Shown here: piece after piece, positions 2,872 to 28,826 of the stretch | Numbering within the stretch: the stretch's first letter is position 1 | How the letters are laid out: the number at the start of each line of letters is the position of its first letter | Origin: Catajapyx aquilonaris | Taxonomy: Eukaryota | Length of the DNA stretch: 64,000 nt | Assembly: GCA_000934665.2 (NCBI GenBank) | Contig: KZ537976.1 | Location: forward strand, 1 to 64,000 | Direction: 5' to 3' | Made by a program: the position numbers and the translations under genes | Notes under the pieces: model-generated | Databases searched by the model: none | What the model was told of the DNA's origin: nothing | What the model saw: only the letters and a program-made list of their open reading frames with translations

Positions 2872-3331
2872 GAAGAGCAAGAAGTCAAATAAGCTTGGTG
2901 GGAAGCGCAAGAGTGACGTGTTGGGCAAAGATGACTCCCGAGATTCAACTCCATCCAAGAAGCCAGCCGACTTTTCCAAATCTTCCACACCATCTGCCCC
3001 TGAGGGTTCCAAGACCCCTCTATCTGCTTCAGCTTCGACTAAGGATGTACCACAAATCCCATCTGCCTCTGCCTCTGCCTTGATCCCTTCTGCAGCTCTC
3101 CCATCTGCCACCTCGACTCCTCAACTGGCTGCTGCCACTGCTTCCTCCCACTCTTCCTCCTCATCTAATCAAGACGCTGGAGATTCTCCCCGCAAGAAGA
3201 GGGCCAAATTTGACCCTAACGTGGAGACTGAAGAGCAGTTTGTCACCAAAGTTGAGGTCAAAGTGAAGATACCTGATGAGCTGAAGCCATGGTTGGTTGA
3301 TGACTGGGAGATGATCACACATCAGAAAAAG
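2872..3331 (+). CDS. MRG15: MRG15/MORF4L1 internal coding exon (Lys-rich and Ser/Ala/Pro-rich linker, start of MRG domain)
   Basis: Acceptor ctcttag at 2871, donor aag|gtatgt at 3332. Encodes ...[47 protein letters not shown], a hallmark MRG15 sequence. Confidence 0.93.
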
Positions 3332-3569
3332 GTATGTTAGCCACTTTTCTCTAAGGTTGTTTATATGACGTGGAATGAGAAAGGAAGAAAGCTCATGCTC
3401 TAGGCTCCTGGTGGTGCAGTGCTTGGGTGTAGTCATAAAGCCTTGAGTGTGAACTGAAGTCATGCTTTCCAGATTGTGTTGGAAACATAGTGTATCAGCA
3501 CTGCTACTGTAAAACATTCAGTCAGACAAGTGTATTACATACCATATAAATTATTACATTCTCTTCTAG

Positions 3570-3834
3570 CTTGTGAACCTTCCCGCAAAGACAAGTGTGG
3601 ACAAAATAATGAGTGACTACGTGAAGCTCAAGACATCTAGCAAGGCCAACAATCCCAACAAGGAGAGTGCAGTGTTGGAGGTGACCAATGGGATCAAGGA
3701 GTATTTCAATGTGATGCTTGGCCCCCAGCTGCTGTACAAATTTGAGCGTCCCCAGTACGCTGAGATCATGCAGCAAAACAAAGATAATCCCCCAAGCGCT
3801 GTCTATGGGGCCGTGCATCTGCTGCGCCTTTTTG
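3570..3834 (+). CDS. MRG15: MRG15 coding exon (MRG domain)
   Basis: Acceptor ctcttctag; LVNLPAKTSVDKIMSDY...GIKEYFNVMLGPQLLYKFERPQY...VYGAVHLLRLF; phase-1 donor g|gtaggt. Confidence 0.95.
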
Positions 3835-4681
3835 GTAGGTAACCTTGCATCAGCCAACCATTTTTTAGGAGCTGAAGCGGCACAGGACTGATGTAGCAAG
3901 AATTCATCAATTAACTTGTCCAGTGGCTTAGTATTTGCACACGAGGAAATATCAAATGAATAGGATTTCTCCAGATGTAAAAGACATGTGCCATTCACTT
4001 TTTAAATCAATCAGTGCAGTGATGAGCATGGGATTTTCCATTTTCCAAGCAACCATTCAATGTATGTTGGGGGTTGCAGTAGTCCCTGAAAAAGAAGCTG
4101 AGTAGTGGAAAACACATTTAGAGGCAGCAGCTGAAAACATGCATTCTGTGTTGCACCACATCCATTGGCAGAAAACTCTTTTGATCAGAAAACAGATTCT
4201 GCCAAAGATCTTCGTTTTCACAACTCTGCAGACTTAGTCCTCACCATGCCATCCAGGCATGCAAAAGTAGTTACCGTAACTGTTTATCAAAAGGCCATGT
4301 GCTGTATGTGTGCACACATTCATCCCTCATCCGATCAGAGAGCAGGAGGAGAAAATATGTCTTCCTGCAGGCTAAAAACAGCAAATGTTGACTGGGTTTG
4401 GTGGTGGGCCCATTCTGAGTGGCCTTTTTTCAGCTCTGTACAGCTATTTGAGGGGAAAGCCAGTTTATGCACCTGATGCAGGATGAAAATTTCCTGCCTA
4501 AAAAGAGGCTAGAAGCATGATTTAGGATGTTGTGCAGCATTGGGCCCCATTTCAGACAGACTTTATCTGTGATTCTAACAGCCACTGATTTCCTGCATGT
4601 GATTTAGGGAACACCCAATTTCCAATCATCTAGATGCAAAGGTCAGCTGTGAACAAAGAGTTCTGCTATAAAATATATATA

Positions 4682-4860
4682 CAGGGTGTCCATAAATGTT
4701 TGTCAACTTTTGAAAGTTGTGCAATTTCTATTGGTTGCGGCTTGGTTTCGGTGTTCAATGGCAAGACAGGCATAGAACGAAAGAGCACATTTTGAAGTTT
4801 TTGTTGCACACACTACAAGTGCTCAATATGAGCACATTTCGTCACACGACACACATCAAG
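4682..4860 (-). mobile_element. Tc1/mariner transposon 3' remnant within an MRG15 intron
   Basis: TA-flanked terminus TA|CAGGGTGTCC at 4680-4690. Minus strand 4860..4813 reads LDVCRVTKCAHIEHL*, matching the C-terminus of a mariner-family transposase. Confidence 0.75.
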
Positions 4861-5682
4861 GCTTGAGGAGATACTTTATTCATCAATAAGAGTTTGCTGT
4901 TTCTTGCTCCTGAGAATCTGCAAAGAATAATCCGAAGAGAACATGTAAGTTTCCATGGCCGTAGAGACTAGCAAGGCATCCTTGTGTGTGTATGGGTTGT
5001 GTTTTGCATGAGAAATTCCCTGAGTGGCCTTTTACGATCTTTGTATTTGGGAAGATAGGTGTATCTTAAGACTGGATAGCTGCTTGGCAGAGCCTGGTTC
5101 TGATTACGAAACAGGGTGGCATCAGTTTGAACTCTTGCCGTTGATGTGGGTTGCAATTGGGGGACTTCCAGAATTCCCATATGACATTTGTATCTTTACA
5201 TCAACTTCAATCGTCAACCTAATGGGGCTCTCATAAAGAACTGTGAGACGCTGCCAAAACCACAACCTTCAGTGGCAGATGAGGTTGACTCCTTCATGTG
5301 GGTGTGTTGAACGTTGTGAAATACAAAGCATGTGGTTGAGATACAGCACCTCTGCTCCATGTAATACAGCGTGATTGTGGTTCATGCAGGTGATCCATGA
5401 AGGACATATTTGGCATTATGATGCAACATTTCATAGGAATGATATTTGCCTAGTGAATGTTTTCCAGCCAGTGACAGGCATTCACATTGTGAGCTGCATA
5501 TGACATTGATATGCAAGGTGATCTGTCCAAATCCAGACAGTAATGTTATCTGGTGACTTGTCATTGATTAGAGCAGTTGTTGCTCTCATCACATGACAAG
5601 GAATGTATTAGGGTTGGGCATTTTGCCCGTTTTACCGGTATGCAAACTTGAATTTTAAATTTGTTATTATTTTTATTTGCAG

Positions 5683-5767
5683 TAAAACTGGGGAGCATGC
5701 TGGCTTACACCCCTCTGGATGAGAAGAGCGTCCAGCTGTTGCTGTTCCATATCCAGGATTTTCTCCG
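5683..5767 (+). CDS. MRG15: MRG15 coding exon
   Basis: Acceptor ttgcag; (V)[27 protein letters not shown](R); donor cg|gttagc; phases match both neighbours. Confidence 0.93.
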
Positions 5768-6069
5768 GTTAGCATTTCTTTTGATACAGGGTGTTTCTCT
5801 GCACAAGCTAATGATCCAAATGGTGGAGGATGGGGAAAAGTTTATGGATATTATTCACCCCTGGGTGATATAAACGTAATCGATGGCATGTGAAAAAGTA
5901 AAGGTAGCTGCATGGGAGTTTGAATGCATGTGAATTACAGGGATGCTTAACACTTGAGGCTTCTGGGCTAATATGAATGCCAGAGGTAATGATCACTTTA
6001 ATTTATTAGTGCTCTTGTACTTTTGGTTAAAGTCTTGTTTTGTTTCTCCCTCTCTTTCTTTATATTTAG

Positions 6070-6154
6070 ATATATGCACAGGAACAGTTCAGCGCTTTTC
6101 AACCTCCAGGCGTACGGTATTCCTCCGCCGGAGTATCAACGAAAGGCAATGTGA
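6070..6154 (+). CDS. MRG15: MRG15 last coding exon
   Basis: Long pyrimidine tract then tttag; (R)YMHRNSSALFNLQAYGIPPPEYQRKAM*, matching the conserved PPEYxRKA C-terminus; TGA at 6152-6154. Confidence 0.93.
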
Positions 6155-10000: not shown

Positions 10001-11823
10001 AAGTGGTAATGGGAGGTGCACGACTAGATAACCTTGTAACCGTTTTCTGACATTGAATTAATGGAAGAAAGGTAAACTTCATTTTGCACTGGGCAATTTT
10101 CCAGTGTTCATTGTCACTGCGAGTTGTGCCAATCAGTCCTGAGGGAATGTTATTTGGAACCAGGATGGGTGTGGGGGAAACCGGATTTGCACATTTCTGG
10201 AACCATCCCTCCAGCAAAATACCTCCATTTTTTCAGCTCATTACAATGATTTGTGCATGATTAGTATCAGAAGATGAAATTAATTTTAATTCCGATTCAA
10301 CTGCAAGAATAGCTTCCTTGGGGGAAAATAAAAGCTGATGTGTGAATTGGTCTTGTACAGAGCTGATTTCCTTTTCGTTATAGAAGAGTGAGCCTGATGT
10401 TTCCTCTCCGTACATCTCTTTGGCTTTGGTAATAGCCTGAAGACATTGTTTGCATCACTGGGCTGTGTATGCCACACAAAGATTACCGCCCGGGATTTCA
10501 TCATCATTCCGCCCGTGAAATTACAGAGTGAGATGCCCCGAGGACATCGTGATTCGAGTTGTTTTTCGAGCACCTCGCCCCTTATTCGCATGCAACTCGA
10601 ATAGGACACCCGGAATGAACCACATTCTTGGTGCACTGGGGTCCACTCCCATCATCCTCATCATCATTTTGAGAGAAAGAAAAGGTGCAACAACCGTCAA
10701 CCCAATCCAGCCTCTGCTGCTTTAGTTTTCTTGGACAAAGTCAGCTCCTTGAGGGAGATATCCGCTAAAATAAGTGGTGTTCCAAAAGTCGTTTGGGCTG
10801 AGAGCTGTGTAAGGACAGGGTAAGGCGATCCGGGGCCGTCTGTGAGGAAACTTGGCGCTGCTGGCATACCAGTCGTCTCCTCGGGGCCCAATCTGCCTCA
10901 GTGCTCCAAGAGTCTCCGACCAGCTAGGTTTGCGACTCGAGACACCCGGCACTCTCACGGTTGTAGGTACGTACCCCCCCAGAGTTGGTGACAAGTCTAG
11001 TGACCTGTGATCAGTGATGCAAGTGACCACACACAATTTTATGGAGATGGGATTTTTGTCATAGAAAAAAATGGTTGTGAGAGTGGTTGTGTGAAAGTGT
11101 GCAGTGGACAGTATAATTATAGTGACAATTTATTACGTGCACGGTTTTATGATTATGGTGAATTGCCGCGCAGTGCAAGCACGTTTTAATCGACGAATCT
11201 GCATATCTGCAACATGCACATAGTTCATGACACTCAAACGACACGTTCATTGATTCAAAACTATGATTTATTGTCACCACACCCTGCTGACAACAACATC
11301 CACGCACTGTCACACTATACCAACTCACCACATTGATAATAAGCGATTTGGCTATAGATTTGGAGGACGAACCTAGGCAAAGAGCTCGGTTCAAATTTGG
11401 TTATGCAAGAGAGAGGCTACTGGGCCTATTAAAAGAAGCATACAGAATTAGTCCAGGATGCCCGCATCCGATGGAATGTCACCTGGCTCGGGAAAACAAT
11501 TCAGTTGCGTAATGACCACTCTTTTTTGCACGTAAGGTGGTTAGGTTAGCAATGTCATTGACATCCATATACATCTCGGATACTCATTACCTCATAAACA
11601 GTTAGGCAACAAAAAAAATGACCGCAATCGTAGGTTGCGTCCGTCCTTGAGAAAAGAAGTTAACCTCTACTTTCAATTTTTTATATATACCACTATACTT
11701 GATCGGAGTTGTCCCTGACTGAAAAAAAAGGTTATTTGGAGGACCATACTGAATTGCTGTACCGTTTTCTTCTGTTATAGCTTTCTCCTTGTCGTGTGAG
11801 GGACCCCCTACACAACAGCCACC

Positions 11824-11937
11824 ATGGATGCCATCAAGAAGAAGATGCAGGCGATGAAGCTGGAGAAGGAGAATGCTATGGACAGGGCTGACGCCTGTGA
11901 GCAGCAGTCTCGCGACGCCGGTCTCCGTGCCGATAAG
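11824..11937 (+). CDS. Tm1: Tropomyosin muscle-type first coding exon (aa 1-38); exon probably begins at 11781
   Basis: Kozak gccacc[42 protein letters not shown]; donor aag|gtgtga. An upstream acceptor (ttctgttatag, 11780) implies a non-coding first exon. Confidence 0.97.
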
Positions 11938-12059
11938 GTGTGACCTCACTCAGAATATTCACTTAGAAAAATAATTGTGACATACTCTTGATGTCTAGGA
12001 AATGACCTAATTTGTCTACAGTACGTTACTGACAAAAATTATTTTGAATTCCAATAAAG

Positions 12060-12185
12060 GCCGAAGAGGAAGTCCGTGCCCTCCAGAAGAAGATCCAGCA
12101 GATTGAGAATGAATTGGACCAGACCCAAGAGAATCTCATGCAGGCCAACACCAAACTGGAAGAGAAGGACAAGGCTCTGCAGAAC
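12060..12185 (+). CDS. Tm1: Tropomyosin exon (aa 39-80)
   Basis: [42 protein letters not shown], 126 nt; AAG acceptor, donor gtgagt. Confidence 0.96.
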
Positions 12186-13187
12186 GTGAGTACCTTTTTA
12201 TATCGAAAAATTTCGCTCCGAAAAAAAACAAACATCGCAGGTATTTAACGTGGGCAAATATTTGGCTCGTGTAATACCTTCCAAACCGAGAGCAGGATGC
12301 TCTGTCTTGGATGACCTCCAGGAGATGAAAGGATTTACCCTGCAAGCTCTTGTCCGAAATAGACTTACTTAACCATTGTATAACGCAAACTCCGCTTTTG
12401 CTGATTGGGGATGATTTACTAGCAAATTATTCCGCTCGAAGAATGTGAACGACCTCATTGTCCAAAAAGCGAGGCAATGGAGCCATCAGTTTCGATTTCG
12501 ATTCTGGCCTGCAGGCGGTCAATCTTCTTTCATGCAGATCACTTTCCTCACGTGGGAAGGACACCTCGGAAGAACCGGATTTTAAAAATCTTATTCAAGC
12601 CTGGTCTGGAGTTGAACGGACCCAGACGCACACTCTTGAGCTTTGATCAAGTGGGAAAGGTGAAGATGCTCTCTAACATTCCAACGGGTGTGAGTCATTT
12701 CAAGAGGCCAAATTTTGGGGCCTCCTGATCACGCATTTGAGACCTGACATGTGTTTTAGGGCGTGGGCAACGTGTGGCGTTAGTTTGCGAAAAACCAGAT
12801 TGGTTTATTGCTCTTGAAAGCAGGGTGAAAAAAATGCGAATTGCGTAAGTTTAGACTCTTTAGAGGGTGCGAAATTAACGGACTCTGAGGTGTGGGTTGG
12901 TTGAACAGACCCAAGTCCTGCTCCAGAAAACAGATCCAGTTCTCTGTCGGAGCTGAGACTGGAAGCCAAAACGATCTTTTAGAAATAAACATCAAGTAGG
13001 TTAAACACACAGGCGATTTTTAGACACCGCGACATTTGCAAACTGCCAAATGTGGGCAAGTCCGACCCCGGGGAAAAAAAATTGGGGATTTGCGTTGGGG
13101 GCGGGTTTTCTTCTTCTTTTGCAGAGTTTAAATCTCGAGAGAACAGGTAATGTAATCTGTCTAAAATTGGCTTGGGCAAGAGGGGCG

Positions 13188-13229
13188 TTAAATATAGCCC
13201 AGTGACGCAGGAGCCATTTCCAAATATGG
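13188..13229. promoter_or_regulatory. Candidate muscle enhancer: MEF2 site plus CArG (SRF) box
   Basis: TTAAATATAG (YTAWWWWTAR) at 13188-13197 and CCAAATATGG (CCW6GG) at 13220-13229, in the intron after the muscle-specific exons. Confidence 0.55.
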
Positions 13230-14863
13230 CGCATGTTAGTAGTGTGGGTGATTTTGGAATGGAGCCTGCTGCTGGCTGGTTCCTTGCTCGTTCCTCGGTT
13301 TGTTTTTTTGTAAGCGAGAGCATTTGAATATGGCGATGCCGGAAAAAATAAAATAAAAAAGCGACAACAGAATAATGTATTGCAGGGTCCATTTACTAGA
13401 CTGTGCACCGGAAGAAGGGAGGGGAGTGAAGTGTTGAGCTCTTAAGAAACTGGGATAAAATGAGAACCAGGGTTGAATCTGCTCAGAACCGTTGCAAGGT
13501 CGGCCTCATTATACACACACACACTACAGTAACTCGGAATGTAAATACCTTTTCGCAGTTTCCGCCCCACAAAACAGAAATAGGCGCCCGCAGGAAGGGA
13601 GCCTGTCGTGTGCCTACTCTCATTTCCACACTTTTGACGTTTATGCAGGTGACTTCCGTTCTCACCATGTGGAGCAAGGCATTTCCCATTTAAAGTTTAG
13701 TGAAACGCAAATGTAAAACTGGGATGAACATGTACAGGAAATGGAAACAAATGGGGAGGGAAATATGTCCTTGAATGAACTCCTTATCATGCAAATCGAA
13801 TGAACAATTATTTTATGAAATAATATCTTCGTATACAGATATAGGGAAGTATCGACAGGCAAGAGCCATTAAAATTTAATACTCTGCATAATATTTGATT
13901 TAGGAGAGCTTCCGTAATGTAGATAGGAATGAATTTGCAATATAAAAATAGTGACGCAATGGGTTCCAGTACTTTTAATTGATCAGTACCTCCAGAACTG
14001 TACAGTAGCTTAAAATTTACTTGCAATATTACTGGTTATCAGACTGAACCCCTATAGTTTTAAAAGAAGAAAAAAACTTATTCAGTTCGTGAACATCCTT
14101 CTTGTAGTATGCCAGCTTGGGACTATAGGATACGAAATAAAATTTTAGTTGAAAATGTCGGAAAGCTATTAATACTTCCCCAAACGAATACTGATGAGAA
14201 TTTTAATAAAAACTGGTCACGACGCCACAAGGCTTGACGCGAAACATCCAGAAAATGCAATAAAAGCAATTTTATCGAGCAATTGCTACATAAAAATTTG
14301 GCAATCTGCGCCACAGTGACGTAAAATTATAGATGAGTAATTCAGAAATGTAATAATTTTATTACGCCCTTGGCGGTAATGCAGAAATATAAAACATGAA
14401 TAATTATTGCTATAAAATATAGGCAATGAAAACATCCTTTATTAGTAAAATCAAGAGTTCATTTGTATTACAAAAATTTCCATGATAATTCAAGAGAGCG
14501 CTAATATTTTCAATTCACGGGGCACTTATAGAGGCAATTGCTGAGGGAATGACATATGCCGATCAAAAACCGCGAATAATTAGGTCGTAAATGCACAATT
14601 TATAATCAAATCGTTATCTCCACGCACTTAACCAGCAAGCAATACAAACGTTATCGCACTCTTTCCGCTCAAATTTGTCAGGCATGCCATTTGTCAAATG
14701 AATTCATTACTGATAAGCGGTCAATGACACTGATTAATTTTCTGGAGCCTCATTCCTGCCGCCGCTCTTTTTCCCTCGTTCCGTTCCGCTCCGTTAAGTG
14801 AACGGCGTGTGTCAGGCGCCTGAACGCGGCCATCATGGCAGAGCGAGTAGAGGGCAATCAGAA

Positions 14864-15307
14864 ATGGCCGAGCGTGAGTCGGCGGACGGGGCTGAGCGAG
14901 CGAGAGTCAGTTGGAGGGGAGGTTCAGTCGAGATGGTCGCTCCGGGAGACGAGGAGGTCCTCAGCTGGGACGAGGCCAGCGTCGAGAGGCGCCGTCTGCT
15001 CAGGCTGCAGCGTCTAGGAAGCATCGGAGGAAACAGGACAGTACCAGTCGGTGGAAGACACGCAACAAGTGTCAACTCAAATGTCGAAGCAGGAGAGGAC
15101 GACCCAGAGATTGCAGAACTGTCACGACTGCGATGCACCAGCGAATGCACCGAACTGATAGCCGAGAGAGAGAAGCGGAGGCAGAGGAGATGCGCAGACT
15201 ACCCAGGGTTCGCTTTCGGATCATCCATATTCAGCTCAGACACCATGATGAAGTTCAATATCATCAAGAACGAGCTGCACAATATCATGAAGACGCAGTT
15301 GAAACGG
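14864..15307 (+). CDS. Tm1: Atypical alternative first exon of tropomyosin (Tm1-I/C-like non-coiled-coil head, 148 aa)
   Basis: Open frame ending DDPEIAELSRLRCTSECTELIAEREKRRQRRCADYPGFAFGSSIFSSDTMMKFNIIKNELHNIMKTQLKR. Phase-0 donor cgg|gtcagt is in frame with exon 21104. Start codon uncertain. Confidence 0.85.
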
Positions 15308-15900
15308 GTCAGTAACAATAGCGGTTCTCTCTCCCTAGAAATTCTTTTTCACTAAACGCCTAAAGGAAGTGGGTGGACGAAGGGGGTGGAAATCAGCTGG
15401 CAGGAGGCCCACACACAGCAGCCAAGGAAAAAAAAACTCAGAGCTCGCGAGAAGACTTGCGGCATCTGGCGGATGGAATGGATATTCCGAGCTGGGTTTT
15501 ACACTCGGCAGAGGGATGCATAAACTCGCCCAAGTTCTTATTTGAAAGGTGACCTCATATCCGCTCTTATCGGGTGGTTGTGTCACCTCATGACATACCT
15601 CTCTGATGAATAGCGTTGCGTGCGAGATTATCTCTGGCTCGAATTGCGCTGATTTCATATTACAGCTCACATGGGAAGAACCGTATAATCATTCCACTTA
15701 CCCCGTCCATTATTACTGGACTAAACAAGCCTACAAGTATATTCACAGACTGTGGTCTACAATAAGGAAGGCTCTTTAATTACCCATCTAAAAATATAAA
15801 TGGGACATCTGATTGCATATGAATGTGGTGGAATTCTGTTGACAGCAGAACTCTGCCAAAATTGATATTGCGTATTTTTAGGCTGGTTATGATGCCTGCC

Positions 15901-16001
15901 ACATTGGATGGAATTTTCGTTGTACTACTAGTCACTGCTAACTTAGCTATACCATTGCATTACACTGGTGCTAGTAGTACGACGAAAATTCCACCTAAAG
16001 T
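15901..16001. mobile_element. Short palindromic MITE-like element (family also at 55027)
   Basis: 31-bp imperfect inverted arms acattggatggaattttcgttgtactactag / ctagtagtacgacgaaaattccacctaaagt. Confidence 0.65.
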
Positions 16002-16889
16002 TTCAGCAGCTGGAGTATTTACACCGGACTGAGCCCATGGTCCACATACATAAAATTTAGCGTACAGATTGATGAACATGATTAGAACATCCGATCAGTG
16101 CGCTAGAAACTTCTCGTATTTAGACCAACGTGTCACTAGATTTGGAATTGCCGCCACCTTTTGGACCAACAATGGCGCCGCGCATATTGGATCCAAAATG
16201 GCGGCCGATTGGCGCTACCTTGTCAGATGCAATGGAAAAGGGCGAGGTCCTGACCCGGTCCGAACACGTCAGTTTCAGCACGCGCGTATCATCTAAAAAA
16301 ATCAGCTTCTGTTAGCACAAAGCACCAAAACCTGACCTTAAAGTCAGAGACGCGTTTCATTCGACTAGTTTCTTTCTTTTTTTTTTGCCCCTCGTCGGAC
16401 ATACAGCACGAACTCGAAAAGAGAGGCGCGCCCTGTGGCGGATTGATACATCATGGCACATCCGCTTTTACCTCCCAATGCCCATGGATAAAGTGCAAGG
16501 CCTGACCTTGTACCGATGTGACCTCTGACATCGCGGTCAACCCAGGTCAAACCGGCATGTGACTAGTCAATACCACCTGTTCGCACAAAACATGTGGAAC
16601 TACTTTACACCGCGGAAGGTTCCCGGTCATGTCAGCAGGTAGTTGCCGGCCGGATAGCTGTAGCGGCTATTGTAGTAACCGTTCTCCTGTTGGTTAAACT
16701 GCTAGTTGATTCGAACATGTACTGTTGACTAGCGTCCACTGCGTTGTTGTTTGTACCTATGAAGCCCGTATGAAGCTCACTTTGTCGACGCCGAACATGG
16801 AGCAAGCACCGTGCTGCAAAAGGCCAGCTCACTCTTGGCCATACAGCCCCCGGCCACGCCACTAGCAGCTACCAGCAGCTGTGCTAGAT

Positions 16890-16925
16890 CCCGCCCTGCT
16901 AAATCCCCGCCCTTCTTTGCCAGTC
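16890..16925 (+). promoter_or_regulatory. Candidate promoter of the cytoplasmic tropomyosin isoform
   Basis: Two GC boxes (CCCGCCC at 16890 and 16906) followed by an Inr-like CCAGTC at 16920, ~135 nt before ATG 17057. Confidence 0.35.
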
Positions 16926-17056
16926 TGGAAAAGAGTCTCTCGAACAGTTGTGCAGTAGAAGGCTCCCATCTTGTGAGGTCCTGCAGGTGGTCGTGTGTGT
17001 GTGCCGGGTTGTGGTCGTTTTCGTTGTGTGGAGTTCAGATAGAAAAAGGAGAAGAT

Positions 17057-17164
17057 ATGTCGACGGCGGTGCAGCAGGGCACGCTCCTGGACGTGCTGAA
17101 GAAGAAGATGAGGCAGACCAAGGAGGAGATGGAGAAGTACAAGGAGGAAGGGGAGGAGCTGCAG
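17057..17164 (+). CDS. Tm1: Tropomyosin cytoplasmic-type first exon, 3' end lost in an assembly gap
   Basis: [36 protein letters not shown], then N at 17165; matches the arthropod non-muscle tropomyosin N-terminus. Confidence 0.93.
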
Positions 17165-17613
17165 NGGGGGAAGGTCATCGTCTTGATTGACCCCCTCCGT
17201 ATAAAGTGCCCTGCCCTGTTCCGTGAATAAAATGGGACAGGTTGGGCTGTAAAAAAAAAAAGTCGCCTAATGTGTTCCCCTGTCAAGTTAGACAGTACCG
17301 GGCCATCTTAACTCATGAATTTTGATCGTTAGAAAGAAGCGGATTGACCACAAAAGTAACCCAACCTGGCCTAATCGAATGCATTCTATTCCACGAATAA
17401 ACGGACATATTAAATATGATAGTACAGAACAGTCCAGATCAAAGAATTGTCGAGGAACAGTCATCCTGCCAATAAAAGTATCTAGACTAACCTGTACTAT
17501 CAGTCCAACAAGAATTGTCGCAGCGGCAGCGCACGAACTACAATCTACGAGCACAGGGACACGAGAGACTGTAGTTCGTGCGCTGCTGCTGCGACAGTTC
17601 TTGTTGGACAGCA

Positions 17614-17812
17614 GGTACCGTTCCATTAATAAATAGACATTGCCCAAATGTTACATACTTTTTAAGCTAATGCGTTCCGTTCCATTTATTAAATGGTACA
17701 GTTTGCAAATGTGCGAACCTGTTCTGTTCCATTAATAAATGAACGGGGGTTAAAAGTGAAAGACATTGTTCGTACCGTTCCATTTAAAGGTACAGTTTGC
17801 AAATGTGTGAAC
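17614..17812. repeat. Degenerate local direct repeats
   Basis: ggtacagtttgcaaatgtgYgaac twice (~17695, ~17789) and gttccattaataaat twice (~17620, ~17726). Confidence 0.6.
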
Positions 17813-20800
17813 GTAGCACACTTCATTGGCTGCGATTGTCCACAACGGGCAGCGAACCCTGAAGTAATTGAGGTGCGACCTTACTGACCCTGTTGTGGGA
17901 ATGGGGTGGGGTACAGGGTGGGTGAAATATGGGACAGGACATCCACCCGCAATGTGTTGCTTTTTGGTAAAATTGTTGCGGTGCGTCCTCTCTCTCCAGT
18001 GGAAGGCCACATACGCATAATGTGGGGCGTGTTTGCCAATGCTGCTCAGGGACTGCGCACACAAAAAAAAACCTGTGTGTGAGAGCGAATATATTGTATT
18101 CAGGTGGGCAGGTGGAATGTAGGACATTGCTGGACTTTATAAGCAGGAGTGACTAGTTGACATTTTGAGGTAATTTCCCTGCGTCAAATCCTATCAGTTG
18201 ATTGCGGCTGGTCCAAAGGGCGTGGTAGGTGTCGCACAGATTGAAATTCAAGGCCGGTGGTGACGGTCAGACTAATTGAAATTGATATGAGGATGACCCA
18301 GACAAAGGCCATTTTGCAAATAAGGTGGGAGACAACTCTTTGCAAAAAAAATATTTAAAAAATCGAATTGCAAGGTGGAGTTGTGGGGAGGGGTAGGTGA
18401 GAGGTGGTTTCTGCCAAATTTGGTCAGTTGTGGGGAAGCAGCGGACACCCTGACGCCCATACCCGTTGACCCTGGCAAGGTGAGGCCATGTGAGTCATTC
18501 AACTCCAGGCTAAAATGCAAAGGGACTCGGCCTCCCTTCTTCAAGATGGGATGGAGCACGTGCAAAAAAAAATTATGCGAGATAAGCTTGCCCTCTTTGC
18601 TTACACTTCTGAGACATGTACCATTTCCTAGAGGGCCTTGACTCATTAGAGGAGGGGGGGGGAAAGTGGGGCAGGTTTCAGTACTTTTATGGGCAGAAAA
18701 TGATTGGCCTGCAGCTTTAGTGTGAATATTCCGACAACCTCTACCACGCACACAAGCACTGTGTGACCCTGCCGGCAGCGAAAGAAATGTAGTGTACATG
18801 TGACATAATGGCAGGAAGGCTGTTTCATTTTGTGCAACAAAGAGACATGAAGGTCGTTAACAGTGGGTGCTGGAATGGAGCAATTAAATGAGGATTGGCT
18901 GGCTGTATAAATATGTGTTAGTGGATGCTATTGTGTTGCAAGTGTTTGAGCAAGTGTATTTTGCACCTGATAGTGATTCATGCTCTTGAAAAACTTATCA
19001 GAGAATACTCTGTTACAATGGCGTTGCTTGCATTACTTTAATCAACAATGTTATTTGCAGTGGGGCGTTGTTGATAATGCGATCAAAATCAGCCAATGCT
19101 CAGTGACTGTACAATGAATTTTGCAATGATGCTGTCAGTATAAGTAGGTTATAGATGGCACGGATTAACAGGGTGATATGAAAGTCCTGCCTGGCAGTTG
19201 CAAGAAGAGCCAGAGTTGGCCACGCAGCATGACAGATCGAAAGGGGGATGTGCGGCCAAGAGATCCACTTTCACTTTGGGCCATTGGAAAACGAGAGGAT
19301 TGATGGCCCCGTCCAAAAATGGCATAGGTGACCTATCAGGTTGGGATGAAGGAGGGAGCTGAAAGTTGGCACACACTTTTTCTGCCTTCTGGGTCACACA
19401 CAGGAGAGGTTACAAGTCGAACAGGAAGGGTAGGCAGAGGCTAACTGTACTTACTAGTTGGTTGGTTGGAAAAGGACAATCAGCTGCTTTACAGGGAATT
19501 TTTTTTCAGGAGGCAGCGTGTGAATTGAGGGTGGAGTCACCTGAGGGCAATGATGGGTCGTTGATTCCATGAGGAAATAGTTTTTTTTATGCGTCTGTAA
19601 TGAGAGGAAAGGGGTTGTGGTTTTTGTGGGCATCACCATCAGCCAGTTAACCAGCTCATCTGCCTATATAAGGCAACCTGGCTACCTTGTCCTTGTATGG
19701 GGATTGCCTCTATCTGCTTTTTGCTATCAGCAGGAACACTGTGCAATACTGCAGTGGAGGCGCTGAGATAAACATCAGTTAAGGTGTATGATCAGTGGCC
19801 ATTGAACCAATTGAACGCAAATGGCATTGCTGTATTAACGGTCAAAATGGCAGCGGGTGTTGGTGACATCCCGCATTCCAGCACGGCATTCCAATGTGTC
19901 TGCTGCTCACCCCAGAAAATTTTTCAACATCCTTTCCATGTGTGACCTTGCTGGCTGAGGGTCGAGCGTAACAGTTACGCGGTCCTAAGCACTATATGCG
20001 TTGTATTGGGGTTTGGCTCTGCGGTGTAGTAATTGAACTGACCCCTCCCTTCCTTCCCTAACTCATTGGGAGTTCTTCCTATCACAGACTGGAAAGGGAA
20101 GTCTGTGGTTTTTAAGGAGGAAGACAACCTAGAGATTAGAGGCCGTAAATACTGTATAAAAAAAGCTTGAAGGTGTGGATTCTTCTGATGGTCTTTGATG
20201 AGTCCGCTGCCACCACCTGAATGGGACTGGAATGTCCTGGAGGGTTGGATGCCAACATGCAGTAGTAGTACACCACTCTTTGGAAATATGCCAGGCTCCT
20301 TGATCATGCATGCTAACAATCTAAACAAGTGGAAGTTTCAGAAGCGTCTTCAAGGTTGTGATGTAACCAATTTAGGCAGGGCCGGACCCCGGCAGCGTGT
20401 GTGGGCTGATTTTGTAACCTGTTCACTAATACCGCCTGGGTTTGATATGAAAAGTCTCAAGGACATTAAGTGCTCCCGATTTGTGATGCACTGTACTCTC
20501 TCTAGGGCTACTAGTGCTCCTCAAACAGACTCTCATTTAGGTTGGTAAAGGATCTGCTTGGCCTTGGGCTGGGAGTGTTATGGTTGTGGAGGTGTGGAAG
20601 ACCATGACATTGGAAGCTTCATATGTTTTTAGGGCAATAATGCTTCTGGCTGCTGGGCAGAACATTTTAAGCCATGCATGATGTCACCAATTTGCAATGC
20701 ATATTTAGCCATTTTGTTGACTAGAGAGGTTGTGTATTTTGCACTTTCGCATTAAAATGAAATGTTGGGTGATTTTATTCTTGGGCTGGATTGAATATTG

Positions 20801-21103
20801 CAATTGTTTCAGGAGGTGTAAAAATTCCATAAATCTGATGTGCACATTTGTGTAAATTCAGATTGTCATCTGCATATATCTGCCATAAGTCAACTTCAAT
20901 AATAGTTCTACTGTACACCTCAGATATGTTTTCCTAATTTTCACAGCTTGCACTTTCAAAGTTGCAGTGCAGTTCATTGCAGTCGTGGCTTATTCCACGG
21001 CCAATATTTGCCCCCGTACATTTTCTGTTAAAAATGCATAATGTGTTCACACTGTCGTGTATAAGGAACAGTGTCGCTTACATGTTGCATCTGTTTTATC
21101 CAG

Positions 21104-21237
21104 GCTGAGGCTGAGGTGGCTGCCCTGAACAGGCGCATCCAGCTGCTGGAGGAGGACTTGGAGCGCTCAGAGGAGCGACTTGCCACCGCCACCACCAAGC
21201 TGGCTGAGGCTTCCCACTCTGCTGATGAGTCGGAGCG
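21104..21237 (+). CDS. Tm1: Tropomyosin common exon (aa 81-125)
   Basis: [44 protein letters not shown](R); ccag acceptor, gtatgt donor; 134 nt. Confidence 0.97.
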
Positions 21238-22034
21238 GTATGTATCATACAATGTTACAATATTTTGATAAATTTTCTTTGCTCAAATCTTACGGGAAAC
21301 GTTAAATGTGATATGATTACAAACTAGTTTAGTTCTTGTGATGCCAGTTTAGAAATTGAGCTGAAATTTTTGTTACATTATTGGGAGTAATTAGTGGGTG
21401 TAGTCACTGTTTAGCTGCATGATTTTATAGCTATAATTTGTAAGGTTTTATTTCAGGTATTATTTGTTGACCTTGTGTTTTGTTGATTTGTTTCTCGAGA
21501 GTATCTGCCCTCTGCCTTGACCAGGTTCTCACTCTCTTGGGATTTCAGCATTGCGGGGTAGAAGTGACAATTTTAAAGTCAGGGTGCTCCTGCACAATGA
21601 TAGAGTGAAATATGGATATCTCTCCAATTATTATTATTTTTTCTTCCGGTAATCTGTAGATTTGAATTTGGTTTTTGTTTTTTTACTTGGGGGAGCCAAA
21701 TTTGTAACAGCAGAGATTTAAAACTATGTTGAGGTATCTAGAATACACATGCCAGTTTTATGAGTGCAGGTTCTGATAAAGTTGTTTTGACAAAGGGCCA
21801 GAACTGAATAGAGAGTGAAAACCCTGTCTTGAGTCTAATTCCTTGGCACTATTTCAATTTTTTTTTTTTGTGGTGTTTTGCAATGCAGATTACATCTTTC
21901 TTCACAATTTAAATTCGGTAGTCTTTTACTTGTCGAGTGTCAAAACAAGGGAACAAAATTTTTCAAAATTTATGGATGAAGGAGCAAAACTCTAATTATG
22001 ATTGGTAATGTGTCTGTAATTTGTGTGTTTGTAG

Positions 22035-22152
22035 GATACGGAAAGCTCTTGAGAATAGAACAAATATGGAAGATGACAGAGTGGCTATCCTCGAAGCTCA
22101 GCTTGCTCAGGCTAAGTTAATTGCCGAGGAAGCTGATAAAAAATATGAAGAG
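22035..22152 (+). CDS. Tm1: Tropomyosin alternative exon 4a (cytoplasmic type)
   Basis: IRKALENRTNMEDDRVAILEAQLAQAKLIAEEADKKYEE; 118 nt; gtag / gtaaga. Confidence 0.95.
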
Positions 22153-22325
22153 GTAAGAACAACCCCATTTCCCCCAACTTTCAACTGATGCACACAAGTC
22201 TGTTTTGAGTTTCAGGCAGTCGAGTGGAAAACCGTCAAGCAAAATATGTGTAGCAAAAAAATCCTATGGTGTTAGAAAGTGTACTAATAGAGCCTGGCAT
22301 CGTCTGTGCTTTTTCCTTCCCACAG

Positions 22326-22443
22326 TATGCGCAAGGTGCTTGAGAACAGGAGCCTCATGGATGAGGAGAGGATGGACCAGCTTGAGAGCCAGCTCAAGGA
22401 GGCCAGGTTCCTGGCTGAAGAGGCAGACAGAAAATATGATGAG
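22326..22443 (+). CDS. Tm1: Tropomyosin alternative exon 4b (muscle type)
   Basis: [39 protein letters not shown]; 118 nt, same phases as 4a. Confidence 0.96.
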
Positions 22444-23599
22444 GTGATTGGCTCTTGCAAGCCAGCACCACGATGAAGCATGAAAGAGTGATCCAGTGTC
22501 TCTCAGTCCATCCCCATACATAACTGCTCCCAGTTTTTGGTTTCTCTTGTTAACTTTTCCCTGCCCTAGTTGTGTTTTGTAACTGACAAAAAAGGGCGGA
22601 CATTGAGGTTTCCAAGTATGCATGTGGGGTTGTATGTCATGTTAAAAAGAACGGTTAAGGCAAGGTCACAAATGTAGTTTTTCATATATATTATGTGACT
22701 TGTAATAATGGGACCATTAAGGACCTTGACAATGCTATTTAATTCAAGTGTCCTATGAAGTTTTAAGTGCTATTTCTTGTGGGACTTTGGCGGTTAAATA
22801 TAGCCTTTGAGCTTTTGAGCTTTGACCAATGTGATACAAGCTGGTATCACAACATATACAATACTATGCGAGTGTGTTTGAATCCAGAATGTCGGCCCTG
22901 CAACCTGTCCATGCATTTAGTTGGCTCCAAAAATTGAGAAGAGTAATCGCATGACAGAACACACACATAGCCAGCATTGAGGATTTAGTCGCTGCTCTCC
23001 ATCCCATTATATATTTTAGGGGAATCAATTTTTCTTACTACGTGTTAGAGCATGGCTCTTTTTCTTTATAATTTTAGAAGGAATGGATCGGTTTGTTCCT
23101 CTCAGCTGTGTTTCGGTGTGTGTTCTGTTCTGTAAATGAGATTTTTGGCTGCATGCTGACAAGACTCACAGTGTGTTTTGTTTTCTTTGCAGGCGAGAGA
23201 TATATGAAAATATATAACATTGTGTTTCTCATACAGTTTTATTGTTTTGTTTCCTATTTTTTCATCATAACAGCTACTAACGTGTGGTTGTGGCGAACAA
23301 ATCTTTTTCTGCAGCTTTAACACATCGTCTAGTACATAGCAAGGCCGCTTTAGTTTAGATGATTTTGATTTGTTTGGACTAATTGCAACTGAACGTCATA
23401 TTTAGGACCTTAGATGCTTGTTCAGCATGTCATTCGCAGTTTAGCACCCTCGGGTGCTCAGCCAATTAAATACTTGAAAGGTAAAATTTCTTGCAAAAAA
23501 AATTAGACAAATTGGCCTTCTACATTTAAAAAATAACAAATCTGGATGCCGTCAGAATTGAGCAAAGTTCTGGAAAGTGACGCAGGAATTGCTTTCCAG

Positions 23600-23670
23600 G
23601 TGGCCCGTAAGCTGGCCATGGTTGAGGCTGACCTGGAGCGCGCTGAGGAGCGTGCAGAGACTGGTGAATC
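23600..23670 (+). CDS. Tm1: Tropomyosin alternative exon 5a (muscle type)
   Basis: [23 protein letters not shown](S); 71 nt; ttccag / gtaagc. Confidence 0.96.
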
Positions 23671-24007
23671 GTAAGCCTCTCTTTCAGTCTGGGCATGAAG
23701 GAGTGCTGCCTGTTCTTGTTCTGTAGAAGAGTATTGTTGCAATGAAAATAACATCATTTGAGAATTACACTAAGTCTGGCCAAAACATTACTGTCAGTTC
23801 TGCCTATATGGCTGGGAAGATTCATTTTTTTGCAAAGCATCTTTAATTTTATAGATATAGATTACTATATATAATTATATTCTATGACTTGAATTTTTGT
23901 AATTCTCAAGGGATGAACTGTGGTGTGTGACACATTTTGAGTTGATTTGCATGGAATTTTGTGAGTGGCTTGACTGCATGTTCTTTTCTGTGTTTGTGCA
24001 TGGTCAG

Positions 24008-24078
24008 GTGGCTCGCAAACTGGTAATGCTGGAACAGGACCTGGAGAGGGCAGAGGAGAGGGCCGAGCAAGGAGAGTC
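24008..24078 (+). CDS. Tm1: Tropomyosin alternative exon 5b (cytoplasmic type)
   Basis: [23 protein letters not shown](S); 71 nt; gtcag / gtaagt. Confidence 0.94.
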
Positions 24079-24464
24079 GTAAGTATAGCTTTGCACCTGG
24101 CTGAAAGAAATTGCATGACTTTTGTTGGGAAGTTGTTGTTAAAGGAGCACAGAGAGGCTGACTTTTAAAAAGCACATAGCATCATGAAAGTGTTCAGAGT
24201 ATTATGATTGGCACATTATAATTGCCAGACATGCAATCATCAGCGTTAAATTAATGTAAATGATTTTGAATGATTTTTGCTCATGATTATAGTCATTTAG
24301 TTCATGGCAAACAATAATTTCTCTGTGCATCCAGTTTATGCCTATTTGTGTGATGGCTTTTGATTCTGCACTAAATGCGATGATCGAGTGGGTTTGCATG
24401 CAATTTTTATCATTATATTTTTACACCACAAGAGATGCATCTGACATATTTTTTTGCATTACAG

Positions 24465-24540
24465 TAAGATCGTGGAGCTTGAGGAGGAGCTGCGTGTTGT
24501 GGGTAACAACCTGAAGTCTCTGGAGGTTTCTGAGGAGAAG
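24465..24540 (+). CDS. Tm1: Tropomyosin common exon 6
   Basis: [25 protein letters not shown]; 76 nt. Confidence 0.97.
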
Positions 24541-25159
24541 GTATATTGGAAGCTACCTGGCTTCCACCAATTGTTCTCTAAGTTCAAATTACAATTGTTG
24601 ATCAATTTTTATTATCCCAGTACATGCTCAGCAATCTTGCAATTTTTAGTAGTTAGTAGAAGGAATTTTGACCAAAAGTCACAATGGTCTTGATGAGTAA
24701 TTAATCATTACATTTTTATTAATTTTGATAATGTTTAAATGGTAAAATATTTGTAAATGACAAGCCTCTTTTCGCTGATTCGCTACATCACAAACACACA
24801 TTCATCACAGTAGACTAGCCTGTCACAATTCAGTAGCCACCGTCTGTGGAAGAATGTGTGGCAAGTACTTATCTACACTAGTTCTAATCATTACAGTTTA
24901 GTAATTGAGTAGTGCATCACGGACCAGTATAATTATTTTTCCTAGCCCTTGCTCACAACAAATGACATTAATATTTGTGAAAATCAGCACTTTTTGATTC
25001 GAAACTTTTTTTGAGTAGAGCAATGTTTTTTCTCGGACTCACCCTCCAACTGCCCGCCCCTGTGGTTGGAAACACTAGAAACTGTTGATAATTAACGACT
25101 CACATGTATCCTCTTTTTTCTCCCTCCCTATTATTTGATATCGTGACCTGTGGTAACAG

Positions 25160-25222
25160 GCTCGCCAGCGAGAAGATGAGTTCAAAGAGAGCATTAAGAG
25201 TATTACCTCTCGGTTGAAGCAG
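25160..25222 (+). CDS. Tm1: Tropomyosin alternative exon 7a (divergent third variant)
   Basis: ARQREDEFKESIKSITSRLKQ; 63 nt; aacag / gtaatg. Confidence 0.85.
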
Positions 25223-25674
25223 GTAATGATACCTGCATCCAAATGCCGCAATTTTTGCCTGGCAACACTAACTCTGGACGGCTTAAAGGCCACCTATCGC
25301 CATTAAGCGTGTGGCCAATTTTTGTGGTTCCGTCTGGACGTCATTTTTTTTCATTTTTCCTACCTTGGACCCTACCCACATCCTCGCGTTGATATGCTGG
25401 AGACAGCAGTTTGCATGACACTAAAGCATGACAATCTAGACCGGGTGGAGTTGCCTCTAGAAAGTATGTGGATGGGGAGCTATTTGGATCTCAAAAAGGT
25501 GATGAAGTTCCTCTAGCGTTTGAGTTCAAAGATGGAAAAATTTGGATAGGAAAACTCCACCTTGTCTCTTCCACACTAAAACACTCAATCACATCGCAAG
25601 AGGCTTCATGGGCATATCATACACTGCTGCGGAACTCTTGTCCCAATTAACCCCGAGGTATTCTTGAATCCCAG

Positions 25675-25737
25675 GCCAACCAGCGTGAGGAAGAGTACAA
25701 GACTCAGATCAAGACCATGACTTCCCGGCTCAAGGAG
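25675..25737 (+). CDS. Tm1: Tropomyosin alternative exon 7b (muscle type)
   Basis: ANQREEEYKTQIKTMTSRLKE; 63 nt; cccag / gtaaaa. Confidence 0.95.
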
Positions 25738-25945
25738 GTAAAACCCAGACGCAGGGAATGGTTCTGGTGGTGTAGTCGTGCTTTTTTTATTTGCACACAG
25801 AATTTCGGCATTCCTGAGCGATCGAGGCTGTGTCATGTCCCTCCAAACCCTTTGCCCCAAACCCAGTTTGTTAGGATCTGTGTTTTTAATTTTGTTTATT
25901 TAGAGTAGATGTATGATCCATCCCTTTTGTGTTAATTTCTTTTAG

Positions 25946-26008
25946 GCCACACAAAGGGAGGAGACTTTTGAGGAGCAGATCAAGGGTCTTTCTACTAGAC
26001 TCAAGGAG
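25946..26008 (+). CDS. Tm1: Tropomyosin alternative exon 7c (cytoplasmic type)
   Basis: ATQREETFEEQIKGLSTRLKE; 63 nt; ttttag / gtaaat. Confidence 0.93.
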
Positions 26009-26979
26009 GTAAATTGCGAATTTTCAAAAAATATTGGAATTGCCTTCATTAAAATAGGCATTCAATTTGGGCTTTTTATAGGTGGAAGCTTTTGGGTTGA
26101 GGGGCAAATACTTGTGCTCTTGTCTACGCTATTGGGAGACTGTCTCCTCCCTACTTTGTCTTTCTTTTCAGTCTTCTCATTCCTTGGTGCACATTCCTGT
26201 ACAACATAGGTTCCTCCAGACCATTTTTTGTTCTCTTTCCTCCTCCCTGCCTGTTCTTGTCTTTTTTAGTTGTTCTGTTGGGTCCGCCCCAGCTAATCTC
26301 TGCTTCCATTAACCCCACCTCTGTGCCCTGTATTCCGGATCAATTGTTGTGAAAGGAGAGAGAGCGAGGCTTGTGTGATTGGGGGAATGCAAGAATCCTG
26401 TCGCATCAACTCAATTCCTCCAGTTTGTTGTACATGAGTAGTGTAGTTAGTGTAACTGGAATTGAGTTGGCGTCTAAGTAGTAGTGTATATTTTTTTTGG
26501 ATCCTGGTAGCAGATGTAGCAGGTACAGTGTAGGCTTTTTCTGGAAGTCGGTGGTGGTGTGCAAAACCGAGTGAAATTTCCAATTACTTTAGAGCTTGCA
26601 CTAAAACTCTTGATGGGAGGGCTAGCCTTTAATTTGAGCGTCTTAGCATGTTCTCAACATATTACAGCATGTGGGATTTTTTTCTCTTTTTTATTTTAAT
26701 TTTTTACATAATTGACGTACCATTAATGGTGCATGAATTTGGTGAATTGGCTGTTCGCATTTTTTGGGGATACATTTTACAACTGGATATGCTATGTGGT
26801 GCTCTCAGGTGAGATATCCAGTTGTTGATGTGTCGTCTTGATGTAACTTGTGTTAGTTACAATGCCATGAATTTGATGAAATTTTGCTAATGGGGGTTAG
26901 TACGAGACTGAGAACTCACGTGCCTGATGTATAATGGAGACATTTCTCCCCCCCCCTCGTTCCTCCAATTCCTACATAG

Positions 26980-27049
26980 GCTGAGGCCCGTGCTGAGTTT
27001 GCTGAGAGATCCGTGCAGAAACTCCAGAAGGAGGTTGACAGACTTGAAG
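26980..27049 (+). CDS. Tm1: Tropomyosin common exon 8
   Basis: [23 protein letters not shown]; 70 nt; catag / gtaaga. Confidence 0.97.
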
Positions 27050-27725
27050 GTAAGATCCTTTTATATAGTCAATTCAATTTTTTCAACAGAATTATTCACA
27101 TATTTGCTGTCATCATGATTGTAAGTTACGATCAACTCTATATTTTCGTCGTGTTGATGATGGAGAGGAAAGGGACCTAATTCCATAGGTTGCTTAGAAC
27201 TAATTTGTTCTCCTTGGCCCCTAAAGAGTAGTAGTTGCACATTTGTTTATTAGCAAATCAAAACAGCGACTGTTTCGCCTTCAAAACGGCGGCAGTGGAT
27301 GTTTCACCTGCAATCACCCCTTTTTTTGCCATAGATCAACTTTGATTTTCTGTATTGGGGCCCCCCTGGAATTTTCATTTTGACTTTTTCAGAGTTGCAT
27401 GCGACTTGAGACAAGTCGCATGTCTACTGCTTCCTGATTTTTTCTTATATCTTCAATTTTTCTGTTCCCTGTATACATTTTGCGTTGTAGTTCCGTGTAG
27501 TGTCCATGTCCCTGTAACGTCCTGTCTTAGTAACACATACAAGTACTGCACTTTTCACCTCTTTGTAAGAAAAGTATTGGGGAGGGAATGGCCCTGGATC
27601 ACTTATTTTGGATCTCAGGAGGTTAAACCTGCAGTACGAAGCACGAGGGATGAGTTTCCTCGCAGACCCGAAACTTTCCCAAAACCCCTTGTGACTAATA
27701 TGGCGTCCCGGCACTCTTCTTGCAG

Positions 27726-27808
27726 ATGATCTCCTTTCGGAGAAGGATAAGAGCAAGCTGTTACAGGAGGAGATGGAAGCCACTTTGCAGGATATCCAGA
27801 ACATGTAG
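27726..27808 (+). CDS. Tm1: Tropomyosin terminal exon 9a (cytoplasmic type)
   Basis: DDLLSEKDKSKLLQEEMEATLQDIQNM*; 83 coding nt after tcttgcag. Confidence 0.95.
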
Positions 27809-28743
27809 GAAAGTTGGGTTGGGGGAAACATTTTAGAAAAAGAGAAAAAAAAGAACGAAACTTAAATAGCAAAAATAAGAGGGATGAGAAGCCCCAGGTT
27901 TGATTCGGTACTCTTGCTTTGTATTTTAAAACTTTTCGTTTTGTGTTAGAGGGAGTGACGTGAGTTGAATGTGTTTATTTGTCGTTTGTTTTTTTGGATA
28001 CTATGACATTCCCCATATAATGCATGGTAGCATAAGTTACGATTTAATGTCCCTGTTTTTGACTGATTTTATTTTTGTAAGCATGTTCATCGTTGGCAGT
28101 ACTAGTTGCACCTCGTTATTGGTTAACCTGTTCGTTTGCTAGTTCTCAGGATTAATGAATTTAAAATTTTGTCACCTTGCATTCCGTATATGTTATGTCG
28201 TGAGGTCCAAAGTATATTGACCAGATGCCAATAATAGAATCAAAGTGCATTGTAGTTTTGTAGTGTGAGACTGGCAATTTGTCATGTTCCCATGTGAAGA
28301 GGCAATTATTTCAAGTATTTGTTAATCACTTCGTTCTGAGGTGAATAAGTTCTACAGCATCCAAAGTGATGTTTCGTGTGCTTGTGATTTATTTTGTTGT
28401 TCTGTGGAAGTTTTATTTGAGTTCAGGTATGAACACACTAACCTTAAACATATCTCAATTGTATTTCCATGATATTCACACACCAACACATTCCTGCCCT
28501 TTTTAAACATTTGTTTGTAAGCTAATTGCTTGGGAGAGCTGCCTGGCATGCATTTCTAATGTTTGATTCCATATTTTTTTTCCTAGTCATTGTCTCAAAC
28601 TTGGGGCTTAGAACTTCAGTCTTCGTCTTCTGCAAACGGACACGAATTGTCTGTGTTTTCTGGTGCTTCTATCTCCTACCTGGGATCAAGTTCTTTGTGT
28701 TGGGTACCTTTTAAGGTGGTGGGTTTTTCCCTATTCCTTGCAG

Positions 28744-28826
28744 ATGACGTTGTCATCGCGAAGGAGAAATACAAGGCCATCTGTGACGATCTGGATGTCA
28801 CGTTCTCTGAACTGACTGGCTATTAA
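28744..28826 (+). CDS. Tm1: Tropomyosin terminal exon 9b
   Basis: [27 protein letters not shown]; ccttgcag acceptor. Confidence 0.92.

Follow-up and report, generated by a model that had tools for sequence, protein, structure and literature searches.

The window, that is, the whole stretch of 64,000 nucleotides that was analysed, carries a tropomyosin gene on the forward strand, and the feature under study, a 148-codon open reading frame called here the head exon, lies within it. To obtain the gene layout, four insect isoforms that carry the head were compared with the window by tblastn, motifs were scanned for, and the RNA-derived contigs of run X2 were used. The following features were placed:

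1323-1730, forward strand: fragment of a reverse transcriptase (Pfam RVT_1, E 2.5e-8), presumably left by a retroelement
3176-6151, forward strand: C-terminal half of MRG15/MORF4L1 in four exons, upstream of the tropomyosin gene
11824-11937, forward strand: muscle-type canonical exon 1 (X2 contig joint 11934>12057, cut +3)
12060-12185, forward strand: canonical exon 2 (X1 and X2 both show the joint 12185>21104, with GT..AG ends)
14835-15017, forward strand: upstream ATG with an overlapping 60-codon ORF, out of frame with the head (from the sequence only)
14864-15307, forward strand: coding sequence of the head exon, 148 codons (protein P0001), one of the tropomyosin gene's alternative first exons (sequence and frame, homology, X2 contigs)
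15101-15307, forward strand: conserved core, head residues 80-148, DPE.AEL..LRC.S..TE..AERE.RR..RCADYPG.AFGSSIFSSDTMMKF.II.NELHNIM.TQLKR (column conservation, 355 sequences)
15248-15307, forward strand: residues 129-148, MKFNIIKNELHNIMKTQLKR, counterpart of fly aTm1 262-281, the unique 20-residue extension of the coiled coil, from the 7BJS_C and 7BJG_A matches
15308-15313, forward strand: splice donor gtcagt, phase 0, directly after ...TQLKR (sequence)
17057-17164, forward strand: cytoplasmic-type third alternative first exon (sequence), interrupted by N at 17165
21104-21237, forward strand: common exon 3, tropomyosin residues 81-125 (Pfam Tropomyosin, E 1.1e-11; joints 12185>21104 and 21236>22325, cut +1)
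22033-30142, forward strand: remaining tropomyosin exons, with the mutually exclusive sets 4a/4b, 5a/5b, 7a/7b/7c and 9a/9b/9c (tblastn; X2 GT..AG joints)

According to this layout, three alternative 5' ends, the head exon among them, converge on exon 3, which alone scores 45.1 bits against a Pfam PF00261 gathering cut-off of 38.6. The internal first-exon position of the head was confirmed, as it follows muscle exons 1-2 and precedes common exon 3. Low-molecular-weight cytoplasmic tropomyosins are produced from an internal promoter, with a first exon that replaces exons 1-2 and is joined to exon 3. The exon at 17057 is of this cytoplasmic type, with a coiled-coil N-terminus for actin binding, whereas the domain encoded by the head exon is mostly disordered and has no Pfam match. 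The sequence-only reading had claimed an internal first exon for a 148-residue head ending in phase 0 toward 21104, and the ORF, the donor and the acceptor are all present as claimed. Translation starts at the ATG at 14864 (MAERESADG...RCADYPGFAFGSSIFSSDTMMKFNIIKNELHNIMKTQLKR) and ends with ...KTQLKR at 15307; an in-frame stop is located 22 codons upstream of this ATG (14795-14797), and the frame is shut 15 codons beyond the donor. The donor gtcagt has a C at position +3. The acceptor of exon 3 (...ttatccag before 21104) is in phase 0, matching the phase of the head donor, and from the sequence exon 3 at 21104 would be the expected acceptor for the head exon. The ATG at 14835 is situated 29 nt 5' of the head start codon, and its overlapping ORF likewise opens with MAER. 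This ATG could compete with the head start codon, and the ORF may be a regulatory uORF if transcribed. Because of this out-of-frame upstream ATG, the true N-terminus of the head depends on the transcription start.

Drosophila Tm1-I/C (aTm1) has a disordered N-terminus on a short coiled coil and binds kinesin-1 for oskar mRNA transport; its rod is shortened (tropomyosin residues 81-165) and followed by a unique low-complexity C-terminal tail. Homology of the window head to the unique exon of this protein was found in two comparisons. Chain C of PDB entry 7BJS matched with E 2e-10, its residues 2-32 aligning with query residues 118-148 at 28/31 identical positions (GRSIFSSDTMMKFNIIRNELHNIMNTQLKR in the chain, GSSIFSSDTMMKFNIIKNELHNIMKTQLKR in the window), and 7BJG_A matched with E 7e-4. 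In BLASTP, the Drosophila innubila protein P0235, which reads RCADYPGLAFGRS..., was identical to window residues 74-148 at 54/76 positions (71%, E 8e-36). The junction that the sequence-only reading had given for the fly protein proved essentially right in both 7BJS_C and P0235. Only residues ~74-148 can be aligned with the fly head; the first ~73 cannot. In PMC8247599, 7BJS is described as Drosophila aTm1 252-334 with Khc 855-942, and 7BJG as aTm1 262-363. The PDB chains and the numbering of that paper equate fly M262-R281 with window M129-R148, which places fly I267, L271, T277, Q278 and L279 at window I134, L138, T144, Q145 and L146, respectively; the equivalents of L296, L300 and L307 are kept in window exon 3. 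In the fly, the triple mutation I267A/L271A/L279A abolished Khc binding, and I267A/L271A impaired oskar localisation (PMC8247599). As judged from the aligned residues, every fly residue tested for kinesin binding is retained in the window head and exon 3.

The 69-residue core (residues 80-148) is near-invariant in ~355 database proteins and also in the 59-sequence alignment A1. The columns identical in 100% of the 355 sequences, a set picked by similarity with a regular expression that itself enforced DYPG and the terminal L[KR]R, are R90, C91, E97, C110, D112-G115, A117, F118, F123, I134, N136-L138, N140, L146 and R148, and thus include I134, L138 and L146, the counterparts of the mutated fly residues. 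Among the same sequences, the first ~79 head residues are not alignable. The motif LRC...RRCADYPG..F, singled out beforehand as the conserved part, was recovered as a near-invariant LRC...RRCADYPG.AF block in both the 355- and the 59-sequence comparisons. The cysteines C91 (15134-15136) and C110 (15191-15193), invariant in the 355 homologues, flank a predicted helix (96-108), and we know of no function for them. The 7BJS_C and D. innubila matches, the kept equivalents of I267, L271 and L279 and the near-invariant core together argue for a true aTm1-type head exon. The segment 14864-15307 is very probably an internal alternative first exon of a multi-promoter arthropod tropomyosin gene and the orthologue of the exon that gives fly aTm1 its N-terminal domain; we put the probability of this whole explanation, including the mechanism proposed below, at about 0.8.

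The head ORF is far beyond a chance ORF, since at E<=1e-3 it matched 898 longer proteins as well as 278 near-length ones, and 301 representative clusters (50% identity) matched it, of which 267 reached E<=1e-10. In the 15-billion-protein collection that was searched, the head protein of the window itself was missing. Its closest relative is P0123, a protein of 190 aa with 75% identity over residues 31-148, and the N-terminal segment SWDEASVERRRL...NRTVPVGG is common only to P0123. The motif RGHQ[HY]HP, present in 231/359 homologues, was not found in the window head. The best named head matches are mayflies, and the named holders comprise nine insect orders, a krill and a copepod. They include Diptera (Drosophila, Glossina, Anopheles, Aedes, Uranotaenia, Bradysia), Lepidoptera, Coleoptera, Hymenoptera (Odynerus), Neuroptera (Chrysoperla), Hemiptera (Parthenolecanium), Odonata (Hetaerina) and Ephemeroptera (Cloeon, Neocloeon), and among crustaceans the krill Meganyctiphanes norvegica, in which the head is spliced to exon 3, and the copepod Tigriopus californicus. 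No chelicerate or myriapod name occurred among the named rows of the best 120-150 matches listed, which is not evidence of absence. According to the Discussion of PMC8247599, aTm1 'is present in Drosophilidae'. In the literature covered, no discussion of aTm1 outside Drosophila was found; Cho et al. 2016 and Veeranan-Karmegam et al. 2016, two key papers beyond that coverage, may address conservation. The head is not confined to Drosophilidae: it is already visible in public gene models, and current annotation pipelines already predict the orthologous head exon in other species.

The neighbouring gene offers a second view of relationships. A Pfam search of the 143 window ORFs of at least 85 aa matched only MRG and the reverse-transcriptase fragment. 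For the MRG15 exon, the best named matches among the 120 listed were Ischnura and Anabrus (77%), Ladona (76%) and Periplaneta (75%), that is, Odonata, Orthoptera and Blattodea, with none above ~77-78%. In a 22-row tree, made of the window and 21 named hits hand-picked from the 120 listed, the window fell outside the starred decapod and chelicerate+myriapod clades, and the tree resolved its position among insects no further. The description of the source as an 'apparently non-insect arthropod' found no support, as the best named matches are mayflies for the head and insects for MRG15.

The sequence that follows the core in other proteins is informative about the exon boundary. Tropomyosin exon 3 comes next after ..L[KR]R in 82 of 346 matches, whereas in 246 the next residue is V, because the GT donor is read through on unspliced contigs; three end at this point, and 15 have other continuations, two of them into the cytoplasmic-type exon. 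In the krill protein P0238 and the mayfly proteins P0008 and P0014, the head is spliced to exon 3 exactly at the core end. On these comparisons, the exon boundary is conserved across species. In two of the database homologues, one being Tm1 of Trypoxylus dichotomus (P0147), the cytoplasmic-type exon rather than exon 3 follows the head.

In run X2, the contigs are 99%+ identical to the window and show GT..AG joints. This run holds 0.64 of the sampled words of 14700-15400, a stretch of which the head exon makes up 63%, and the contig depth is 21.6 in the bin 14805-15425, compared with 0.87 and 2.02 in the flanking bins. Run X1, a metatranscriptome, was rejected as support, as it holds only 0.07 of the words at 90-95% identity and derives from another organism. 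Some X2 contigs run unspliced through four introns (22417-23199, 24512-25187, 25980-27007 and 27020-28771; depth 14.5-24.2) and represent either pre-mRNA or retained introns. Since these intron-spanning contigs have a similar depth, the depth over the head exon alone is no proof of mature mRNA. A further signal at 17289-17909, with an X2 depth of 21.9 and a number of long loose ends at 17488-17554, probably stems from a repeat or belongs to another transcript. Among the 15 listed of the 22 joints over 11700-30300, the canonical ones are present and 15307>21104 is not, which has no bearing on its absence; splicing of 15307 to 21104 in this animal is therefore predicted from the sequence and from other species.

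These results bear on two alternative explanations. The head ORF might be translated with no splicing to tropomyosin, in which case it would be a nested, stand-alone gene or would give a product of intron retention whose end reads ...QLKRVSNNSGSLSLEILFH. The missing 15307>21104 joint in the listed set, the large share of read-through ORFs among database proteins and the annotation of the Tigriopus head in its own locus would fit such a product. Nevertheless, the read-through proteins come mostly from short assembled contigs on which the gene caller ran past the donor, and their post-donor tails are mutually unrelated; moreover, all named full gene models splice the head to exon 3, and even the Tigriopus protein has a tropomyosin-like coil directly after QLKR. 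We regard unspliced translation as very improbable. A decaying, unused relic exon could be suspected from the weak-looking donor and the upstream out-of-frame ATG, but the frame is intact, the invariant positions of the 355 relatives are all kept, the nearest relative P0123 retains the identity given above, and a discrete RNA-derived contig signal covers the exon, so a relic is scarcely credible. An expressed first exon spliced to exon 3 accordingly remains the preferred reading.

The gene is a tropomyosin gene, and the head itself is not a tropomyosin coil. When the head exon alone was searched against Pfam at E<=1, no family was returned, PF00261 Tropomyosin included, and 32% of its 148 residues are charged (24 K+R, 24 D+E). 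The AlphaFold2 model based on the 59-sequence alignment had a mean pLDDT of 62.5 and a pTM of 0.25, with only short helices at residues 37-51, 81-89, 96-108 and 125-144, in line with the earlier description of a charged head that is no tropomyosin coil. The helix 125-144 is the most confident, the 10-residue blocks across 121-150 averaging a pLDDT of 77, 91 and 78. For residues 80-124 the confidence is only 54-70, and the structure of the CADYPG block is therefore unsupported. As modelled, the protein fits a mostly disordered head that would end in the crystal-structure helix.

In the window as in fly aTm1, an alternative first exon lies inside the tropomyosin gene and its phase-0 junction reads KR|AE, in the window as predicted from the sequence; the head is largely disordered, and its 20-residue helical extension runs, or in the window would run, into common exon 3. 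They differ in head length (148 residues in the window, 281 in fly aTm1), in the first ~79 residues, which in the window are unrelated to those of the fly, and in the substitutions R268>K and N276>K from fly to window. The proposal of a more compact head held in comparison with Diptera/Lepidoptera (median 238 residues, 90 spliced models) and failed in comparison with the mayflies (139 and 152) and krill (147), which are alike in this respect. The same core and junction as in the window occur in Cloeon dipterum isoform X13, Neocloeon triangulifer X4, Hetaerina americana models, Helicoverpa zea tropomyosin-2 X7 and Meganyctiphanes norvegica CAL4111999.1.

A further difference concerns the rod. 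No equivalent of the low-complexity tail exon of fly Tm1-I/C was found in the window, where the rod is probably full length; in this search, made without the fly tail sequence as query, read-through past the exon 4a/4b donors stopped after 10-11 codons. Among 90 spliced models of other species that begin with M, 58 show 200-209 residues beyond the junction, which corresponds to the full 204-residue rod. By analogy with these models, the head of the window is most likely joined to all 204 residues of the tropomyosin remainder (residues 81-284) and not to the fly short coil with tail. Drosophila Tm1-I/C reportedly forms intermediate-filament-like polymers, a finding ascribed to Cho et al. 2016. 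Proteins of this kind are defined by a head, a rod and a low-complexity tail and by spontaneous assembly into filaments whose diameter lies between those of F-actin and microtubules, and the fly tail is required for filament formation. Since no tail exon was found and most models elsewhere have the full rod, filament formation is not to be assumed for the window protein, and the same applies to the oskar-linked function of fly Tm1-I/C.

The full rod raises the question of whether an orthologous head could do another job. Joined to residues 81-284, it might belong to an actin-associated tropomyosin of the low-molecular-weight type with a regulatory extension, or to a self-assembling filament protein, rather than to a kinesin-1 partner. 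This would agree with the whole rod of most annotated models, unlike that of fly Tm1-I/C, with the early stops past the exon 4a/4b donors in place of a fly-like tail and with the filament formation reported for the fly, as paraphrased in PMC5603733. The strongest conservation, however, falls exactly on the kinesin-binding helix residues, the head is devoid of the canonical N-terminal overlap region of exons 1-2, and the extension itself, as argued in PMC8247599, causes an antiparallel, non-actin topology. Such another job is considered unlikely, and a kinesin-1 partner is the reading followed here.

The proposed mechanism would begin with transcription starting just upstream of the head exon and splicing of the head to exon 3. 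Residues ~125-148 and exon 3 would then form one continuous helix, which, as in 7BJS, would pack antiparallel on the coiled coil formed by two chains of the kinesin-1 heavy-chain tail, its target being the kinesin tail's alternative cargo-binding site instead of actin. On the basis of residue conservation, this antiparallel docking of helix 125-148 with exon 3 on the kinesin heavy-chain tail is the most likely arrangement. The block 80-124 (LRC...RCADYPG.AFGSSIFSSD) would adjoin the auxiliary microtubule-binding and IAK autoinhibitory region of kinesin, and the charged, poorly conserved first ~79 residues would be a lineage-specific disordered arm. We know of no published experiment that gives the CADYPG block within 80-124 a specific function. 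In PMC8247599, the antiparallel topology is the reason for which the fly N domain is placed near the IAK motif (Discussion), and the Khc IAK region is described in PMC10948360 as unaffected by Tm1 252-334 alone and affected by 1-335. The N domain also binds RNA in flies (PMC10948360 / PMC8247599). By analogy, block 80-124 is the strongest candidate for the N-domain portion which, in flies, keeps kinesin inhibited and binds RNA.

The copepod provides a contrasting case. In Tigriopus californicus LOC131877252 (P0252, 296 aa), the head core is like that of the window (64% identity in tblastn) and the coil follows directly after QLKR. Unlike in the window, the head is annotated as a locus of its own, and its coil, short and divergent, scores 26.4 bits against Pfam Tropomyosin (below 38.6) and is followed by a proline-rich tail. 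This layout of head, short rod and tail is closer to fly I/C than the window gene is. Taken together, these comparisons permit a broader reading, which we hold tentatively and rate at somewhat less than an even chance. The 69-residue core would be an ancient kinesin-1 tail-binding or regulating module of insects and crustaceans, older than oskar-based germ plasm. Its last 20 residues with exon 3 would dock on the alternative cargo site, while the LRC...RCADYPG.AFGSSIFSSD block beside AMB/IAK would act as a switch that keeps kinesin inhibited or binds RNA; in the copepod, the module would have been transferred to a separate gene that has a short rod and a tail. If this is true, the fly 'I/C' layout would be a recurrent and not a Drosophila-specific solution, and the remark on Drosophilidae in PMC8247599 would greatly understate the range of aTm1.

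In the fly literature, Tm1-I/C figures as peculiar to Drosophila and bound up with the transport of oskar mRNA. Judging by the spread of homologous sequences, the age of the head module is much greater than this literature implies, and the finding of a kinesin-binding extension with a still better-conserved upstream block in a distant arthropod points to a putative general, old regulator of kinesin-1. The window result itself is ordinary, in that it concerns an orthologous exon and not a new system, and its main value is comparative, lying in the age and the sharpness of the core. The short invariant motif RCADYPG.AF...SSDTMMKF, at fly residues ~230-261, is the place to mutate in flies when the function of the N domain is addressed.

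Several homologues deviate from the common pattern. The copepod-type protein P0252 and its relatives P0229 and P0248 have a longer basic linker and a divergent short tropomyosin-like coil. P0185, P0128, P0233 and P0130 form a head subgroup with a common upstream ..SERTVIG.. motif, and P0185 runs on into a divergent tropomyosin-like coil (Pfam 53.3 bits). In P0003, a hypothetical protein of Aedes albopictus (681 aa), the head core occurs twice in tandem with the same read-through tail after each copy, which looks like an assembly or annotation duplication.
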